Below are positions 31,956 through 55,496 of a stretch of DNA of 64,000 nt, piece after piece (position 1 is the first letter of the stretch; the number at the start of each line of letters is the position of its first letter). The position numbers and the translations under genes were made by a program. Origin of the DNA: Escherichia phage anhysbys; sequence record NC_052656.1. One strand, 5' to 3'. The notes below the pieces were generated by a model that was given only the letters and a program-made list of their open reading frames with translations, ran no database searches and had not been told where the DNA came from.

Positions 31956-32915
31956 TTAGATTCCAATAATAGTTGCTGCTCGTTTATCTTTGGATCTGGT
32001 GTTTGCTCTACTACGTGACAAACCTCCACAAGATTCACAACGAATGATATCGAAAGAACTTACCGCAGTGTGGTATTGCTTACCAGTAACAACGTGAACA
32101 TGATCACTGCCGCAACGAGAACAACGGACTTTCTCATCTGGGTAATAAGCGGATAAGTTAGGATGCTGTGGAATCCACGGAAGGATTTTCATATACAAAT
32201 CACGAAGTGAAACAACATCACCATCATTGTAAATCTGCATACGTTCAAAAGCATCACGATCACCTTCACAACATGCTTTCCATAAAGGGAACCCCTCGTT
32301 ATCCAGTTTTTCACTTTCTGTTTCAAAATACGCTCCCATCTCTTTAAGAGAATTGGAAGGAAGTGCAAACTGTTTCTTAGCTGCCTTCAAGGTATCAACA
32401 ACTACATAGTTAGAAGGTGGAGCCATATCATGATATGCGAAGCGTTGGTTAATGTATGCACGGTCAAACTTGTACCCATTGTGAGCCACAACAACATCAG
32501 CTTCATTCAGAAGATTCCAAAGATCTTGGCAAAGTTCCCAATCATCTGTATGATCGATATCGAAAAGAGGATAAGAAGATAAATTCTTACCTTCTACTTC
32601 ACCTGTATACAAATCAGCAGAAGAGTAAGATAACAAATAACCCCTACGAATTACCTGGTCTGGAGAAATGAAGGCTTTGAATCGACGGAAAGTATATGCA
32701 ATCTCTGGTGCAGTTTCAACATCAATAATTTTAATAACTGGTTGTTTCTTTTTAACTGGCTCTTGTTTACTTGCACCGAAACGTGCAAGAAAATCATTTA
32801 CTGTGCTTTTTCTTGTTGGACTACCTAAAACAATTGCTGCAATATTGCGAGAAGACATACCCTCTGCACTCATACTAAGGATATCTGCTTTCTGCTCTTC
32901 TGTTAATCTGCTCAC
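31956..32915 (-). CDS. DEDD-family 3'-5' exonuclease with N-terminal HTH and C-terminal zinc ribbon
   Basis: IIDVETA (Exo I), VAHNGYKFD (Exo II), YNDGDVV (Exo III); CSRCG ... CESCG at C-terminus. Confidence 0.6.
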   Translation of the reverse strand: MSRLTEEQKADILSMSAEGMSSRNIAAIVLGSPTRKSTVNDFLARFGASKQEPVKKKQPVIKIIDVETAPEIAYTFRRFKAFISPDQVIRRGYLLSYSSADLYTGEVEGKNLSSYPLFDIDHTDDWELCQDLWNLLNEADVVVAHNGYKFDRAYINQRFAYHDMAPPSNYVVVDTLKAAKKQFALPSNSLKEMGAYFETESEKLDNEGFPLWKACCEGDRDAFERMQIYNDGDVVSLRDLYMKILPWIPQHPNLSAYYPDEKVRCSRCGSDHVHVVTGKQYHTAVSSFDIIRCESCGGLSRSRANTRSKDKRAATIIGI

Positions 32916-33601
32916 TCTGCCTCCTGTTGTGAGATGTATGACTGAAGCATACTCTCAAATGTTGTATCGTCATTATCCCAGCGTTTCATGTATACCAACT
33001 GGAAAATTGTTTCTATCCATTCATCTGTTGTCATATGGACTTCTTCTCCATCCCAAGAAGTAAAATTAACGCCATCTGGGAACCACGAGTAGTAAGTATC
33101 TTTAACTGTTTGGAAAAGTTCTGCTTGAGTTTTACAAGCTGAAAGAAGATTAAAACAAGTAATATCTCCGAACTTAATATCAAAATCTTGATAAGGTCGG
33201 ATACTATCTGTTTTATCTCCCATTAGCATCTGATAGGCTAACCAATAACTTCCCCAACCTTTAACTTCTTTCTTTTTACCTTTATCTACGATCCATATGT
33301 CGCCAATAGACTCGTCAATAAGAATTATATCTGGATTTTTAAATACTCCATCCTCTTTGTAGAAATTAAAAAGGATACTAGGAGTATGTAAACTATCTTT
33401 ATCTATAGACACTACGATATAAGAAAATTTACCCGTCCTTTTATAATCTTTATAACCTTGGAAACCATACTTCTCTAACTCATCGTCAGCCTCTATTACA
33501 GTAACAACATCACCATTGTGGAACTCCACAAGATAATCTTTGGTTTCTGAAAGCTGAAGTGGTTTGATATCTAATCGTTCAGATTTATATTCTACAGGCA
33601 T
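32912..33601 (-). CDS. hypothetical protein (possible PD-(D/E)xK-like nuclease)
   Basis: 229-aa ORF; IILIDESIGDIWIVDKGKK resembles a D...E.K core; ATG 33601 has only a weak RBS. Confidence 0.45.
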   Translation of the reverse strand: MPVEYKSERLDIKPLQLSETKDYLVEFHNGDVVTVIEADDELEKYGFQGYKDYKRTGKFSYIVVSIDKDSLHTPSILFNFYKEDGVFKNPDIILIDESIGDIWIVDKGKKKEVKGWGSYWLAYQMLMGDKTDSIRPYQDFDIKFGDITCFNLLSACKTQAELFQTVKDTYYSWFPDGVNFTSWDGEEVHMTTDEWIETIFQLVYMKRWDNDDTTFESMLQSYISQQEAE

Positions 33602-34038
33602 TTTGAAGGCGTGTCTGAAAGTTTTTCCTACGCCAATAACTCCGCAATATTTTTCTAAACGTAGATGTTTTAGAATACCTAAGACTTTTGTTTTAGCTGC
33701 TTGGAAGGTGTGTCCGATATCTTCTGGCGGGTATTGCTTATCAATAATTTCGAACTCTTCCTTTGTGAAGGGACGTTTGTTTTTGGAGGCTCTTTCTGCA
33801 TTTGTATCTCCTAGCCAACCTCCAATTTTAGTCTTACTTTTACCCCAAAACTCTGTCTTATTTTTAAATTCCTTTTGAGCACCTGAAGGGATGTGCTTCG
33901 CAATGATTGTTCTTTTCTCTAATGCAGACGCTGCTTGGAAAGCGATCTGATCATAATCAATTGCAGCTATTGTTTCTTCGTTGACATATAAATGAAGATC
34001 TTCAGGTTTAATTAAAATATAACCGCTAATATTTCCCC
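33595..34038 (-). other. 148-codon stop-free open frame lacking any ATG/GTG/TTG (possible non-canonical start, recoding, or pseudogene)
   Basis: Minus frame read codon by codon from TAG at 34039-34041 to TAG at 33592-33594 with no stop; K/E-rich protein-like translation; different frame from both neighbours. Confidence 0.35.
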
Positions 34039-34042
34039 CTAA

Positions 34043-34252
34043 TTATTCATCGTCATCCTCTGTTGAGAATGTTTTAGTATACGGACATTGACGACTTTTC
34101 GGGATTGCTATAACTTCATCTTGGTTAGCGTTAGAATAGTAGCAATATTTTGTGTTGCCATTAACTTCAGAATCAGACAAGATTAAAGTAATTTGACCTG
34201 CTGCTACTGTGAAACTAAAAGCTAAAAGAACGACTGTCAGAATCTTTTTCAT
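34043..34252 (-). CDS. small secreted/lipoprotein-like protein
   Basis: N-terminal signal-peptide-like MKKILTVVLLAFSFTVAAG; own promoter and AGGAGG RBS. Confidence 0.55.
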   Translation of the reverse strand: MKKILTVVLLAFSFTVAAGQITLILSDSEVNGNTKYCYYSNANQDEVIAIPKSRQCPYTKTFSTEDDDE

Positions 34253-34260
34253 AACGCCTC

Positions 34261-34291
34261 CTAAAAAGCCTACCTCATTAAGTAGGTAGGC
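34261..34291 (-). terminator. intrinsic terminator overlapping the downstream promoter
   Basis: Minus-strand GCCUACCU-ACUUAAUG-AGGUAGGC followed by UUUUUAG. Confidence 0.55.
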
Positions 34292-34320
34292 ATAATATCA
34301 TAACTAATCCCGCAAGTCAA
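34292..34320 (-). promoter_or_regulatory. sigma70-like promoter (TTGACT-17-TATTAT)
   Basis: Minus-strand TTGACT (34315-34320), 17-nt spacer, TATTAT (34292-34297); predicted start falls inside the terminator 5' arm. Confidence 0.55.
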
Positions 34321-34324
34321 GAAC

Positions 34325-35203
34325 TTATTTAAGGATTGTTGCTTTGGTTAAATCTTCCATCAGACCTCGAATCTCATTGAAGCACAGAAGGACTGAAGCT
34401 TCAATACTACCTTCTTCGTCTGCAAAATATTTCGGAAAACGTAGTTTAGAAAGTTTAAACTCTTTATCCACTACAAAATCTACAACACCATCATATTCAA
34501 GACCGATTGCAACCACATCTTTACCATCTTCTTTTAGTTCGACAGCTTTAGACTCGTATAGGGATTCTTTACTCCAAACAACAACGCCCTCGCTATCCTC
34601 CATTTTGATATAATTTCCGAGAGTAATACGATCTGCTTCGTGATTCTCCAACAATTCGCCAAAACCTTTTACAATAGCTTCTTCGTGCACACTAAAACCT
34701 ACCGAAGGGAAAGTCCCCAGAACGGAACGGAGGAAAGAAGTAATCTCTTCTGCAACCTTTTTACTTCCATTAAGAACATAAAGAAGATTCGTAGTTTTAT
34801 CCAAGACAACATAGTTAAAGAAATCTTCAGGTTCTGTTTCAGGCAATAGTGCAAATTCAATATCTTCCTTCATTGCTTTGACTACTTCTTTATCAACATA
34901 AAACTCTTTACCTTCGCTCCCCATGTCCTGACGCATTTCTTCTAGACGTTCATTCAGAATACGTTTAACTTTCTTTTTATCTACTTTCTTCACAGATTGA
35001 CCTACATTAAGTAGTTCAAGATCTGAAAACTCTTTTACAAATTTAGAGTCATCTTCGAAACGAACAAGACCGATAGTGTGTGACTGGGAGCCTTCTGCCG
35101 TTACAAATTCCAGAGGAATATCTGTAATGCTGTTAAGGGATGCTACAGAAGCATTGTCACCAACAACCATAGGCAGAGCGGATTTAAAAGATTTTACAAA
35201 CAT
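34325..35203 (-). CDS. putative RdgC-like recombination-associated protein
   Basis: 292 aa; overall pattern resembles RdgC from memory only. Confidence 0.35.
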   Translation of the reverse strand: MFVKSFKSALPMVVGDNASVASLNSITDIPLEFVTAEGSQSHTIGLVRFEDDSKFVKEFSDLELLNVGQSVKKVDKKKVKRILNERLEEMRQDMGSEGKEFYVDKEVVKAMKEDIEFALLPETEPEDFFNYVVLDKTTNLLYVLNGSKKVAEEITSFLRSVLGTFPSVGFSVHEEAIVKGFGELLENHEADRITLGNYIKMEDSEGVVVWSKESLYESKAVELKEDGKDVVAIGLEYDGVVDFVVDKEFKLSKLRFPKYFADEEGSIEASVLLCFNEIRGLMEDLTKATILK

Positions 35204-44773: not shown

Positions 44774-44848
44774 GGCCCTGTAGCTCAATGGGAGAGCTGT
44801 CGGCTCATAACCGATAGGTAGCTGGATCGAAACCAGCCAGGGCCACCA
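44774..44848 (+). tRNA. tRNA-Met (anticodon CAT)
   Basis: Manual cloverleaf: acceptor GGCCCTG/CAGGGCC, loop CTCATAA, T-arm GCTGG-ATCGAAA-CCAGC, encoded CCA. Confidence 0.8.
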
Positions 44849-44850
44849 AC

Positions 44851-44925
44851 GTCTTTATGGTGTAATGGATAGCACAGGAGTCTTCTAAACTCTTAGTCAA
44901 GGTTCGATTCCTTGTAAAGACACCA
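44851..44925 (+). tRNA. tRNA-Arg (anticodon TCT)
   Basis: Acceptor GTCTTTA/TAAAGAC, loop CTTCTAA, T-loop TTCGATT, encoded CCA. Confidence 0.8.
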
Positions 44926-45120
44926 GAACATTTTAACATGAATTAGCTCAAGTGATTTGAACCCACTACTGATCATGGTGGCAGAGAATGAGGCAAGTAT
45001 GTCAGACATTATAAACAAAGGCCACGGTTATATTAGAAGACATAAATGCTCGAAGAGCACCGTTCGTTGAGAACGGGGGTTGGTGGAGTCACCATTCATG
45101 GTAAAATGTTTTAAAAACTA

Positions 45121-45150
45121 TTGACAACTAACATTATTTTATGTTAGATT
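45121..45150 (+). promoter_or_regulatory. sigma70-like promoter (CTATTGACAA family)
   Basis: TTGACA at 45121-45126, 18-nt spacer, TAGATT. Confidence 0.4.
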
Positions 45151-45158
45151 ATAAGTAT

Positions 45159-45249
45159 GGAAGGGCAAATCGACGTGGCGACGAAAACGGTCTTGAAAAC
45201 CGCCGAGCTTGAAAGAGCCTTGGGAGTTCGACTCTCCCTCCTTCCGCCA
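45159..45249 (+). tRNA. tRNA-Ser (anticodon TGA), class II
   Basis: Acceptor GGAAGGG/TCCTTCC, loop CTTGAAA, long variable arm, T-arm GGGAG-TTCGACT-CTCCC, encoded CCA. Confidence 0.75.
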
Positions 45250-45254
45250 GATTA

Positions 45255-45340
45255 GGTAGATTGGTGAAATGGTAGCCACAACAGTTTGCTAAACTGTAGT
45301 CGGAAACGGCGTGTAGGTTCGAGTCCTACATCTACCGCCA
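45255..45340 (+). tRNA. tRNA-Ser (anticodon GCT), class II
   Basis: Acceptor GGTAGAT/ATCTACC, stem ACAGT/ACTGT with loop TTGCTAA, long variable arm, encoded CCA. Confidence 0.8.
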
Positions 45341-45470
45341 AGTTCTTTTTAATATAGCTTACTTTAATAGAGTAAACTTTCGGCAGATGGCCTCCACCAT
45401 CTTACCGATAACTCATAGTTAGTGGTGTGAACACTGGCTATTTTAAAAAGAATTTAAATATTAGTATTTA

Positions 45471-45558
45471 GGTGAGTTAATTCCGTAGGGGTAGCGGGGC
45501 AGACTGTAAATCTGTTATCATTGCGATTCGGGTGGTTCGACTCCATCACTCACCACCA
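45471..45558 (+). tRNA. tRNA-Tyr (anticodon GTA), class II
   Basis: Acceptor GGTGAGT/ACTCACC, loop CTGTAAA, long variable arm, T-arm GGTGG-TTCGACT-CCATC, encoded CCA. Confidence 0.75.
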
Positions 45559-45564
45559 AATTAA

Positions 45565-45650
45565 GATGAGTTGGCTGAATGGTTTAAGCGGCGGACTGTT
45601 AATCCGTGTTCGAAAGAACGATATAGGTTCAAATCCTATACTCATCGCCA
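45565..45650 (+). tRNA. class II tRNA with anticodon GTT (Asn-decoding by anticodon, isotype uncertain)
   Basis: Acceptor GATGAGT/ACTCATC, stem GCGGA/TCCGT with loop CTGTTAA, variable-arm hairpin GTTC-GAAA-GAAC, T-arm ATAGG-TTCAAAT-CCTAT, encoded CCA. Confidence 0.6.
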
Positions 45651-45657
45651 GAATTAT

Positions 45658-45734
45658 GGACTTGTAGAGTTAAGGTAAACCCCCAGTCGCCAAGAGGCTT
45701 CTGGAATTGCAGGTATCGAATCCTGCCGAGTCCC
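45658..45734 (+). tRNA. tRNA-like element with non-canonical anticodon arm (possible pseudo-tRNA)
   Basis: 7-bp acceptor GGACTTG/CGAGTCC and T-stem GCAGG/CCTGC with 8-nt loop TATCGAAT, but no standard 5-bp/7-nt anticodon stem-loop; no CCA. Confidence 0.3.
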
Positions 45735-45740
45735 AGCTTT

Positions 45741-45815
45741 GCTCCTATAGTATAATGGCTATTACAACGGTTTTGTAATCCGTGGATCTCTGTTCGATTC
45801 AGAGTGGGAGCACCA
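45741..45815 (+). tRNA. tRNA-Thr (anticodon TGT)
   Basis: Acceptor GCTCCTA/TGGGAGC, loop TTTGTAA, T-arm CTCTG-TTCGATT-CAGAG, encoded CCA. Confidence 0.75.
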
Positions 45816-46088
45816 ACACAACATTAAGGGCACTGTGATTGATCGTCGTATCCTGTGCACAAGGTCTGTTCGAAAGACAGTGTTCTTAGTATTGTGTTGA
45901 TCACACAAAGAGTCACCTGAAACTTGACCGGAGTAGGGTTGGATGGGGCAAAAGAAGAAGCGGCTCTCCCATCGACAGCAACGAAGAATAATATTTGACT
46001 TTGGTTTTGTATTATTTTAAGTTAGCTTACCGAACGTAGGGCTAGTCACCCAATGGGATACTCGTCACTGTCCCACTCAATAAAACTA

Positions 46089-46118
46089 TTGACAACCAAT
46101 AGTAAAATGTAGTATAGT
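46089..46118 (+). promoter_or_regulatory. sigma70-like promoter (CTATTGACAA family)
   Basis: TTGACA at 46089-46094, 18-nt spacer, TATAGT. Confidence 0.45.
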
Positions 46119-46129
46119 AAAGATGTAGG

Positions 46130-46203
46130 GCGTTCTTGGTGTAGCGGTAGCATTCCGTCCTTCCAAGTCGGCGGCACGAGTTCGATCCTCGTAGAACGCT
46201 CCA
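46130..46203 (+). tRNA. tRNA-Gly (anticodon TCC)
   Basis: Acceptor GCGTTCT/AGAACGC, loop CTTCCAA, T-arm ACGAG-TTCGATC-CTCGT, encoded CCA. Confidence 0.75.
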
Positions 46204-46301
46204 AATTATTTAATAAAGGGTTGCCAGAAAACTTTCTCTTTTACTCATGGTTTTCTCCTTCTCTCACACCTCTTCTGGTTGCCCTTCATTAAATGATTTA
46301 T

Positions 46302-46376
46302 TGGTTTGTAGTGTAGTCCGGTAGCACACGACACTTTGACTGTCGTAGGTTTGGTTCAAATCCAGACAGACCAGCC
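46302..46376 (+). tRNA. tRNA-Gln (anticodon TTG)
   Basis: U1-A72 acceptor TGGTTTG/CAGACCA with discriminator G, stem CGACA/TGTCG with loop CTTTGAC, encoded CCA. Confidence 0.8.
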
Positions 46377-46382
46377 ATATAA

Positions 46383-46459
46383 CGGAATTTAGCTCAGTTT
46401 GGTAGAGCATACGCTTTGGGAGCGTAGGGTCGCAGGTTCGAATCCTGCAATTCCGACCA
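46383..46459 (+). tRNA. tRNA-Pro (anticodon TGG)
   Basis: C1-G72 acceptor CGGAATT/AATTCCG, stem TACGC/GCGTA with loop TTTGGGA, T-loop TTCGAAT, encoded CCA. Confidence 0.8.
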
Positions 46460-46465
46460 ATCAAA

Positions 46466-46539
46466 TGTTTCGTAGTTCAATGGTAGAACCCACGACTGAT
46501 AATCGTGAGACACAAGTTCGATTCTTGTCGAAACAACCA
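46466..46539 (+). tRNA. tRNA-Ile (anticodon GAT)
   Basis: Acceptor TGTTTCG/CGAAACA, stem CACGA/TCGTG with loop CTGATAA, T-arm ACAAG-TTCGATT-CTTGT, encoded CCA. Confidence 0.75.
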
Positions 46540-46541
46540 GT

Positions 46542-46611
46542 TTCCCGTTAGACTTACAGGATAAGAGTTCCACAACTTATTGTGATGCTGGTTCGAATCC
46601 AGCACGGGATA
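46542..46611 (+). tRNA. tRNA-like element with non-canonical anticodon arm (possible pseudo-tRNA)
   Basis: Acceptor TTCCCGT/ACGGGAT (1-72 mismatch) and canonical T-arm GCTGG-TTCGAAT-CCAGC, but middle folds only as CACAA-CTTA-TTGTG; no CCA. Confidence 0.3.
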
Positions 46612-46617
46612 CATAAT

Positions 46618-46696
46618 AGCGGGATAGAGGAGTCTGGTCGTCCTCGCCAGTTTCATATGCTGGAGATCATCGGTTCAAATCCGATTCCCGCCTCCA
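46618..46696 (+). tRNA. tRNA-Met (anticodon CAT), second copy, initiator/Ile2 not excluded
   Basis: Acceptor AGCGGGA/TCCCGCC with A1.C72 mismatch, stem CCAGT/GCTGG with loop TTCATAT, T-arm ATCGG-TTCAAAT-CCGAT, encoded CCA. Confidence 0.65.
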
Positions 46697-54065: not shown

Positions 54066-55067
54066 ATGCCAGCAGTAATTTTAGATCAGGTTGTAGATTT
54101 CAGCCCTATGATCGAACTTCAGGATTCCCCTGATACACTGATTGCCAGCCTGAATCTGTTCAGTGTTGACTATCATTCAACTACCGCTATTGAAATCGGT
54201 AAAGAAAAAGCTGAAGATGCTCTGATCTCCGCTCGTGAGCGTGGTGGTGAGCGTAACTTCCTGAGCATGAAAAATCCAGAACTGAAAGCGTTCCGCATTC
54301 CGTTCTTCCCTCTGGATAAAAACATCAAAGCTCAAGATATTCAATCTTTCCGTAGCTTTGCAATGGCAGGAATCAATGACTCTCTGCGCACAGACGCTGA
54401 AGTTGTTAACCGCTATATGTCCCAGATTCTGCGTGACGTAGCAAAAACCAAAGAGAAAATCTTTGCAGAAGCAGTTATGGGTCGTGCCTATAACGGCGTA
54501 GGTGGTGCAGCTAACTCTGCATACAACTGGTATACAGAATGGGGTGCTACCCAGAAATCTGTTGCTGTAGACTTTGCTTCTACCACTGTTTCTCCAGCAG
54601 CCACTATCGAGAAAGAAGCTCGTGCTTACATCATCGATACTAAACAAGATGGCTCTACCGCTACTCGTATCGTAGCTCTGTGTTCTCGTGAATTTTTCGC
54701 ATCTCTGGTTAACTCTCCATTTGTTCGCCAGGCATATCAGTATTTCCAGGGAACTCCTAACCTTCTGCGTGATCGCCTTAGCGGTAACATGGATGTTCAG
54801 GTGTTCGAATGGAACGGTGTAACTTACATTGAAGATATCCACGGTAACATCCCTGCTGGTGAAGCATATGTTCTGCCTATGGGTATCGAAGGTATGTTCC
54901 AGGCGCACTACGCTCCTGCGGATACTCCAGAACTGGCTAACACCCAGGCTCGTGAACTGTATACCTTCATGATCAGCCAGCACCGCACTATTCAGCTTCA
55001 GTCTGAATTCTCGCTGCTCGCAGTTAACACCCGTCCAGAACTGGTAGTTAAACTGACTACGGCTTAA
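54066..55067 (+). CDS. major capsid protein (lambda gpE-like)
   Basis: 333 aa; ELANTQARELYTF resembles the lambda gpE NTQARGL segment; strong RBS and terminator right after the gene. Confidence 0.6.
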   Translation: MPAVILDQVVDFSPMIELQDSPDTLIASLNLFSVDYHSTTAIEIGKEKAEDALISARERGGERNFLSMKNPELKAFRIPFFPLDKNIKAQDIQSFRSFAMAGINDSLRTDAEVVNRYMSQILRDVAKTKEKIFAEAVMGRAYNGVGGAANSAYNWYTEWGATQKSVAVDFASTTVSPAATIEKEARAYIIDTKQDGSTATRIVALCSREFFASLVNSPFVRQAYQYFQGTPNLLRDRLSGNMDVQVFEWNGVTYIEDIHGNIPAGEAYVLPMGIEGMFQAHYAPADTPELANTQARELYTFMISQHRTIQLQSEFSLLAVNTRPELVVKLTTA

Positions 55068-55088
55068 TAGAACTCTGTTAAGATTAGA

Positions 55089-55120
55089 GGCTCGTCCGTG
55101 ATGGGCGAGCCTTTTCTGTT
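55089..55120 (+). terminator. intrinsic terminator after major capsid gene
   Basis: GGCTCGTCC-gtgat-GGGCGAGCC followed by TTTTCTGTTT. Confidence 0.7.
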
Positions 55121-55151
55121 TACAATAAGAGTTTACAACGAGGAGATTGAT

Positions 55152-55496
55152 ATGTCAAACCCAGAATTGAAACGTTACTTTAGTTATCACGAAATGATTC
55201 GTGATTTCGAATCGCTTTCACCACTGATCGATGCTGATAAAACATTAGTATCTGCGCCACCAATGTCTTTCTATCTGAAAGATGGTCGTGTTGCATTAGG
55301 TGGAAACTTCATTCACTTCCTCACGCGTTTGAGAGAAGAAACAGGTATTCTTGTGCATCCTTTTGCAAGTGAAGAACACATGGGTTACTATCTTGTAAGT
55401 TACGAAGATTATGCACCTGTAAAAATCAAAGAAGAAGTTTTAAAAGTAGAAGCGGTAGACACTCCAGCTAAAAAACGTTCCCTTCGTAAAAAATAA
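55152..55496 (+). CDS. hypothetical structural protein
   Basis: Start moved to ATG 55152 after gaggag so it does not overlap the terminator. Confidence 0.45.
   Translation: MSNPELKRYFSYHEMIRDFESLSPLIDADKTLVSAPPMSFYLKDGRVALGGNFIHFLTRLREETGILVHPFASEEHMGYYLVSYEDYAPVKIKEEVLKVEAVDTPAKKRSLRKK

Follow-up and report, generated by a model that had tools for sequence, protein, structure and literature searches.

Near-cognate start codons in Escherichia coli are exemplified by infC and pcnB, and the start codon of infC is AUU or AUC in all bacteria (PMC5499595). In E. coli reporters, near-cognate AUU, AUC, AUA and CUG starts give about 1–2% of the output of AUG; IF3 discriminates against such starts, and the AUU or AUC of infC is used for IF3 autoregulation (PMC5499595). 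Here we describe a phage gene that very probably starts in the same manner. It lies on the minus strand of a stretch of 64,000 nucleotides from Escherichia phage anhysbys (NC_052656.1; the whole stretch analysed is hereafter called the window) and encodes a predicted 5′–3′ exonuclease of the flap endonuclease (FEN) type. As in infC and pcnB, an AUU follows a Shine-Dalgarno (SD) sequence, the near-cognate codon is conserved among relatives, and a weak start subject to IF3 discrimination would be expected. The infC product, however, is a translation factor, whereas the phage gene encodes a nuclease with no obvious autoregulatory loop. The phage clade, unlike infC, also uses AUA and CUG, and the gene stands directly behind an open reading frame (ORF) upstream of it, where coupling may contribute.

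The relatives of the protein itself are the FEN 5′-nucleases, among them T5 D15, T4 RNase H, E. coli ExoIX/Xni and the 5′-nuclease domain of Pol I; we take T7 gene 6-type exonucleases to belong with them. Whereas these proteins have some 250–300 residues, the window protein has 372, carries insertions and falls below Pfam thresholds. Closer to it is the "putative exodeoxyribonuclease" of rV5 and other Vequintavirinae, a full-length orthologue with 37–43% identity and the same SD-to-start geometry. That orthologue starts with TTG, ATG or GTG, whereas the phAPEC8/phi92-like clade has ATT, ATC, ATA or CTG in its place.

Reading frame and start codon

The first-pass annotation of the window had reported a stop-free, K/E-rich minus-strand frame of 148 codons with no canonical start. 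Re-reading the minus strand from 33000 to 34700 and translating its three frames showed that such a frame exists, but in a different register and with different borders: the frame originally given, from TAG at 34041–34039 to TAG at 33594–33592, contains eight stops, and the true run is one base out of register with it. The run extends from 34042 to 33602 on the minus strand and consists of 147 sense codons without a stop, ATG, GTG or TTG, with K and E making up 21% of its translation. Its upstream border is the TAA at 34045–34043, which is the stop codon of a 69-amino-acid ORF. On its 3′ side there is no stop; the frame runs into the ATG at 33601 and on to the TGA at 32914–32912, so that the open frame after the TAA totals 376 codons. 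The run had been assigned a frame different from that of either neighbour and an overlap of about 30 codons with the ORF downstream. Instead, it shares its frame with the upstream 69-residue ORF and the downstream 229-residue ORF alike, does not overlap the latter, and is the in-frame 5′ extension of 32912..33601. Joining the run to the downstream ORF takes no frameshift, because the two share a frame, and the frameshift fusion proposed earlier falls with the mis-assigned frame on which it was built.

The earlier judgement that a stop-free run of this length is unlikely by chance held up. Base composition gives a probability of about 3.7e-5 for 147 stop-free codons, and that of 146 codons without ATG, GTG or TTG, which make up 4.97% of codons in the long ORFs of the window, is about 6e-4. 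No other open frame in the window has so long a start-less prefix as these 147 codons. The runner-up among frames of at least 150 codons, with 57 codons (54177..55154, minus strand), was rejected as a second gene with a non-canonical start: it is the antisense shadow of a plus-strand gene (54066..55067), and its translation is not protein-like.

In frame, the codons following the TAA are TTA GGG GGA AAT ATT AGC GGT TAT. The AGGGGG in this sequence can pair fully with the anti-SD sequence, one G·U pair included, and stands at functional spacing before the ATT, which itself lies 12 nt beyond the stop of the 69-residue ORF. The 147 codons are thus divided into four that precede the ATT and 143 that encode residues 1–143 of the nuclease. 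The first canonical start in frame is that of Met144, downstream of the conserved residue D25 and of the first core strands of the protein. No purine-rich SD precedes this ATG at 33601, where the preceding sequence is cacgccttcaaaATG. The run is very probably the front part (143 residues) of a single FEN-type nuclease gene of 372 residues translated from the near-cognate AUU at 34030–34028, and we infer that initiation occurs at this AUU in vivo. A non-canonical ATT start after AGGGGG had been one of three origins considered at the outset, and it is the one that the data support. The expected N-terminal tryptic peptide for this start would be (f)MSGYILIKPEDLHLYVNEETIAAIDYDQIAFQAASALEK or its des-Met form. 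RNA structure around the start was no different from that of shuffled sequences (minimum free energy −15.9 kcal/mol, z = −1.26).

Coding constraint on the extension

Next, we compared the extension pairwise with seven relatives, using Nei-Gojobori counts of synonymous (pS) and nonsynonymous (pN) differences. Over codons 2–143, pS was 0.65–0.82, that is, saturated, and pN was 0.16–0.26. For codons 2–24 alone, the values were 0.70–0.90 and 0.11–0.27, respectively, and therefore purifying selection sets in right after the ATT. Residues 2–8 are conserved as protein, with variation at the synonymous sites. The frame was intact in all relatives examined, and we found neither the similarity of pN to pS nor the disruptions in some relatives that a pseudogene would display. 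This strong purifying selection contradicts a recently inactivated gene, the third origin considered initially, as do 63 phage records in which the full-length sequence is intact, with at least 99% protein identity. It had also been reasoned that the coding interpretation would fail if the translation lacked homologues and had the codon-usage statistics of non-coding DNA. Homologues are plentiful, and pN is well below pS.

Start codons in relatives

The homologous start was compared in GenBank relatives, in IMG/VR and metagenome loci, and in contigs encoding database homologues. The 26 distinct relatives that share at least 48% identity with the window protein all have a near-cognate codon (ATT in 10, ATC in 10, ATA in 4 and CTG in 2), and these four codons are exactly the near-cognates with 1–2% activity in the reporters. 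By contrast, all 13 relatives with at most 43% identity (rV5, Ro1 and other Vequintavirinae-like phages) have ATG, GTG or TTG. The suggestion that homologues be searched for an ATG therefore proved informative, since rV5-like relatives carry a canonical codon at the same position and the closer clade never does. AGGAGG or AGGGGG stands 4–5 nt before the start in 26/26 near-cognate relatives, with equal SD-to-start spacing in the orthologues that start with ATG, GTG or TTG, and the extension is stop-free in every one of the 26. An upstream ORF always ends 1–13 nt before the start in the near-cognate relatives, and its stop is often a TAG overlapping the SD (TAGGAGG). Three more distant orthologues, from PAK_P5, Barba30A and Amme-3, had been listed with two features beneath the matched region, but each is annotated as one ordinary full-length coding sequence (CDS).

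Several relatives confine the start further. In the loci L014, L073, L074 and L075, an in-frame TAA immediately precedes the ATC (ggaggagTAA ATC ggt tac), and therefore the ORF cannot begin further upstream there. The next canonical start in L014 comes only past the conserved DYDQ motif, and in L021 there are 200 codons without one.

In a neighbour-joining tree, the near-cognate sequences all fell into one clade. A Fitch count gave 13 start-codon changes over the whole tree and none from a near-cognate to a canonical codon inside that clade, where about 6–7 changes occurred (a number read off the tree by eye). Two close pairs differ by two nucleotides at the start, namely L064 (ATT) and L063 (CTG), and L076 (ATA) and L112 (CTG). 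These switches plausibly passed through ATG, and if so, ATG arises but is not retained.

The predicted protein

The 372-residue protein matched the PHROGs family phrog_107, annotated as "exonuclease", over residues 10–367 (E=1.4e-55), and its N-terminal 143 residues alone did so with E=5e-7. A tblastn search returned 1231 phage records, 899 with at least 80% coverage of the protein, and the 63 records mentioned above are at least 99% identical over all 372 residues. In an alignment of six sequences (from Phapecoctavirus, Justusliebigvirus, a Klebsiella phage, Mydovirus Ro1 and rV5), D25, D27, Q28, E38 and R40 of the extension are invariant. In a wider alignment of 46 homologues, the invariant residues are D25, E180, D182, D183, D210, D212, D272 and D275; D27, E38 and K211 are at least 90% conserved. 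AlphaFold2, run with the homologue alignment, produced a model with a pLDDT of 96.1 and a pTM of 0.89, in which residues 16–25 form a core strand with D25 at its end. A Foldseek search of the PDB with this model matched E. coli ExoIX and the T5 D15 flap endonuclease with probability 1.0, and the predicted PIN-like α/β 5′-nuclease fold superposes on the solved members of the FEN family. As in those enzymes, there are conserved carboxylate clusters for two metal ions, with one Asp near the N-terminus. We presume that the invariant carboxylates correspond to D26, E128, D130, D153, D155, D201 and D204 of T5.

Two results count against this assignment: the window protein has no match to Pfam PF02739 (5_3_exonuc_N), and a PDB sequence search with it returned nothing significant. 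PF02739 was matched at E≤1 by 24 of the 46 homologues (best 1.7e-6) and is assigned to several database homologues in precomputed annotations; the link is only transitive because the homologues match the family and the window protein does not. Profile alignment to the Taq 5′-nuclease was weak (E=0.12), with the FRH..YK, EADD, DKD and GDxxDN motifs lining up. At the position of "VFDAK" in Taq, the profile alignment of the window protein reads "GVxGxG", and thus a classical carboxylate may have been lost or moved. Based on the PHROGs match, the transitive Pfam matches and the predicted fold, the protein is a predicted FEN/PIN-like 5′–3′ exonuclease. Starting at Met144 would leave the product without D25 and without the fold's first strands, since both lie in the extension.

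Weighing the ATT start

Several observations weigh against initiation at the first ATT. The frame contains further ATT codons at residues 5 and 7, and it is by SD spacing and comparison that the first is chosen as the exact start. We found no N-terminal peptide, ribosome profiling, toeprint or IF3-sensitivity data for this AUU in the literature. The change from canonical to near-cognate codons counts as a single event, because the near-cognate group is a single clade. An argument from selection then hangs on the roughly 6–7 later changes, which are suggestive but not statistically strong. Depletion of ATG, GTG and TTG inside the extension was inconsistent across the clade. Selection against internal canonical starts was accordingly discarded: the counts were 0–5 in the near-cognate clade and 2–9 in the canonical one, the remainder of the gene was depleted too, and the signal was not robust, with five such codons in alia and phiWec181. 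Finally, one relative with 55% identity (L062, positions 574–600 of an ENA ERZ1524533 contig) has an SD-proximal ATT followed nine codons on by an ATG without an SD; gene callers choose this downstream ATG, and it is possibly the real start there. Perhaps the lineage is passing from one start site to the other, or both may be in use.

Of the readings that depart from the first ATT, a start at another non-canonical codon slightly downstream, such as the ATT of residue 5 or 7, survives best, and we consider it unlikely. Three in-frame ATT codons do occur among the first seven residues, and the clade with 55–57% identity has been called from a start 8–9 codons further in. Yet the SD lies 4 nt before the first ATT, compared with 16 and 22 nt for the other two; the 4–5 nt spacing recurs in the relatives with ATG, GTG or TTG; and residues 2–8 are conserved in the protein despite variation at their synonymous sites.

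It is very unlikely that translation truly begins at ATG 33601, giving 229 residues, with the 147 upstream codons an untranslated remnant of a longer gene. This ATG is the first canonical start in frame and is the one used in all six other near-identical records checked and in Klebsiella phage phi1_175008. Against it stand the pN values of the upstream codons, far under a saturated pS; the invariant D25 and first core β-strands encoded there; the absence of stops from these codons in 26 diverged relatives; and the lack of an SD at 33601. Moreover, Met144 is an internal residue in the canonically started homologues and is replaced by Ala in Ro1.

A fusion of the nuclease with the upstream 69-residue ORF, through TAA readthrough or programmed frameshifting, is highly improbable. 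The upstream ORF does share the frame of the nuclease in the window and in phAPEC8, with one TAA between, and a database protein of 444 residues (P0005) resembles such a fusion. However, the upstream ORF of alia and phiWec181 is in a different frame (+1), L014-type relatives have two in-frame stops, TAG then TAA, and a methyltransferase or HNH gene takes its place upstream in L062 and L063. The frame relation varies, unlike that expected of a fusion made at a conserved recoding site, and the signal-peptide-like N-terminus of the 69-residue product makes it an unlikely partner for a DNA nuclease. The P0005 fusion (L053, 1501–2835; Logan SRR30397360) was discarded as a gene-calling artefact, because the contig has a TAG and does not translate to the query. 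The P0005 gene call reads this TAG as Gln, possibly by an alternative genetic code. A sequencing or assembly error that destroyed a normal ATG has nothing in its favour beyond the odd look of the region and can practically be dismissed, given the same ATT and context in independently sequenced genomes (the 63 records) and in divergent metagenomic relatives.

Expected expression from a weak start

For the AUU at 34030–34028, we propose that pairing with the initiator fMet-tRNA, mismatched at the third position, would take place on a 30S subunit strongly anchored by the SD. Ribosomes terminating on the upstream ORF may assist initiation; such translational coupling is possible because the stop of the 69-residue ORF lies so close before the ATT. 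Proofreading by IF3 would hold nuclease output low and might render it sensitive to IF3 or to host physiology. In a phage-derived coupled system, IF3 overexpression depresses re-initiation (PMC2268962); by analogy, this result is consistent with IF3 sensitivity, and it is not specific to the nuclease gene. We infer low expression of the nuclease, sensitivity to IF3 and coupling to the upstream ORF.

Weak codons have been retained alongside an SD that is uniformly strong, which suggests, on sequence comparison, selection for a low or conditional dose of the nuclease. Only tentatively do we advance the further idea that, throughout this clade of large virulent phages (down to about 48% protein identity), the weak start is a selected control and not an accident that is tolerated, the dose being throttled via IF3, via host physiology (ppGpp, temperature) or via ribosomes from the upstream ORF; if true, such a start would correspond, in a phage, to the AUU switch of infC. 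In enterobacterial systems, near-cognate starts that are conserved are very rare, and the near-cognate clade with its canonical sister clade forms a natural paired system for asking why weak starts are selected. Nuclease toxicity, operon stoichiometry and sensing of the translational state of the host are possible causes that are open to test.

Existing annotation

The window derives from a phAPEC8-like phage, and the region described here is 99–99.9% identical to that of over 60 such Escherichia phages (Phapecoctavirus, Stephanstirmvirinae). In the record of ESCO13 (KX552041.2), a 372-codon CDS is annotated exactly from the ATT at 34030–34028, with a ribosome-binding site feature in front; the ESCO13 genome announcement does not mention the ATT start. 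By contrast, phAPEC8, ASO2A, EF1-1, ESCO25, iGC_PHA_EC001 and phAPEC8_ev052 have only the 229-residue CDS from the internal ATG, which leaves a gap of about 440 nt upstream. In phAPEC8, this gap is filled with a hypothetical protein of 40 residues (G377_gp266, corresponding to 33679..33801 on the minus strand of the window). That ATG-started ORF is the sole one in the frame chosen by the first-pass annotation and is almost certainly spurious. In the more distant Klebsiella phage phi1_175008, which uses the internal ATG, the gap holds two antisense CDSs (L006, 475–840).

A core replication and recombination nuclease is thus truncated by about 40% in nearly all near-identical records checked, with loss of an invariant catalytic Asp, and the phages affected are widely isolated coliphages that are therapeutic candidates (phAPEC8-, phi92- and ESCO13-like). 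Gene callers restricted to ATG, GTG and TTG will repeat the mis-annotation. Near-cognate initiation itself is already known, and this particular ATT start is already present in one GenBank record. We found no paper on this start codon, its conservation across the clade or its mis-annotation, and the clade-wide near-cognate starts opposite a canonical sister clade, together with the systematic mis-annotation, appear to be new.

Some records of this group have unexpected host names. Campylobacter phage B15 (MG065650.1) and Acinetobacter phage vB_AbaM_ABPW7 (OP562383.1) show 99.0–99.4% DNA identity to the window, and Campylobacter phage C3 (MG065656.1) is a Justusliebigvirus-like relative with 77% protein identity. 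The host labels of these three records look doubtful.

tRNA genes and neighbouring genes

The window also contains a cluster of ten tRNA genes on the plus strand (44774–46696), two of them with the anticodon CAT and one for tRNA-Ile(GAT). The first CAT tRNA (44774–44848) has a GGCCC acceptor stem, which we take to be characteristic of tRNA-Ile2, the tRNA that reads AUA through a lysidine modification. The second (46618–46696, 79 nt) has an A1xC72 mismatch, an initiator-like determinant; it is conserved in Stephanstirmvirinae and has weaker matches to tRNA-Met/fMet genes in many other phages. A phage-encoded initiator-like tRNA as helper of the ATT start was considered and set aside: the second CAT tRNA is without the three G:C pairs in the anticodon stem, similar tRNA-Met genes occur in many unrelated phages, and no link was established.

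The features of the locus are given in Table 1. In order, the minus-strand block comprises an rdgC-like gene, the terminator-like hairpin and promoter-like site, the 69-residue ORF, the FEN-like nuclease gene and a DnaQ-like gene.

Table 1. Coordinates of the nuclease gene, its proposed start and neighbouring features in the window
Feature	Coordinates	Strand	Remarks
Predicted 5′–3′ exonuclease / flap-endonuclease-like gene	32912..34030	−	372 codons + TGA, read from ATT as fMet
ATT, proposed near-cognate initiation codon	34028..34030	−	First in-frame near-cognate codon after the upstream stop
Shine-Dalgarno-like AGGGGG	34035..34040	−	4 nt upstream of ATT, read from the sequence
Start-less run, corrected	33602..34042	−	147 codons free of stop, ATG, GTG and TTG
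Internal Met144 ATG	33599..33601	−	Start of the annotated 229-residue "putative exonuclease" in all near-identical records checked other than ESCO13
69-residue ORF, hydrophobic signal-peptide-like N-terminus	34043..34252	−	phrog_4641, E=7e-27
Promoter-like TTGACT-17-TATTAT	34320..34292	−	Consensus scan; upstream TG, 10/12 matches
Terminator-like hairpin with T-run	34291..34268	−	Consensus scan; directly abuts the promoter-like site
3′–5′ exonuclease-like gene (RNase_H_2 / DnaQ-like)	31956..32915	−	GTG start

By its sequence, the promoter-like site probably drives a transcript of the 69-residue ORF and the nuclease gene. Transcripts from this site would start within the 5′ arm of the hairpin, and they could escape the terminator that stops those coming from the rdgC-like gene. 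The record of phage ASO2A annotates a terminator at the same place as this hairpin. At the other end of the nuclease gene, its stop overlaps the start of the DnaQ-like gene as GTGA (32912–32915, minus strand), and an AGGAGG lies 4 nt upstream of that GTG, inside the nuclease coding sequence. A weak nuclease start could therefore affect coupled translation of the DnaQ-like gene too.

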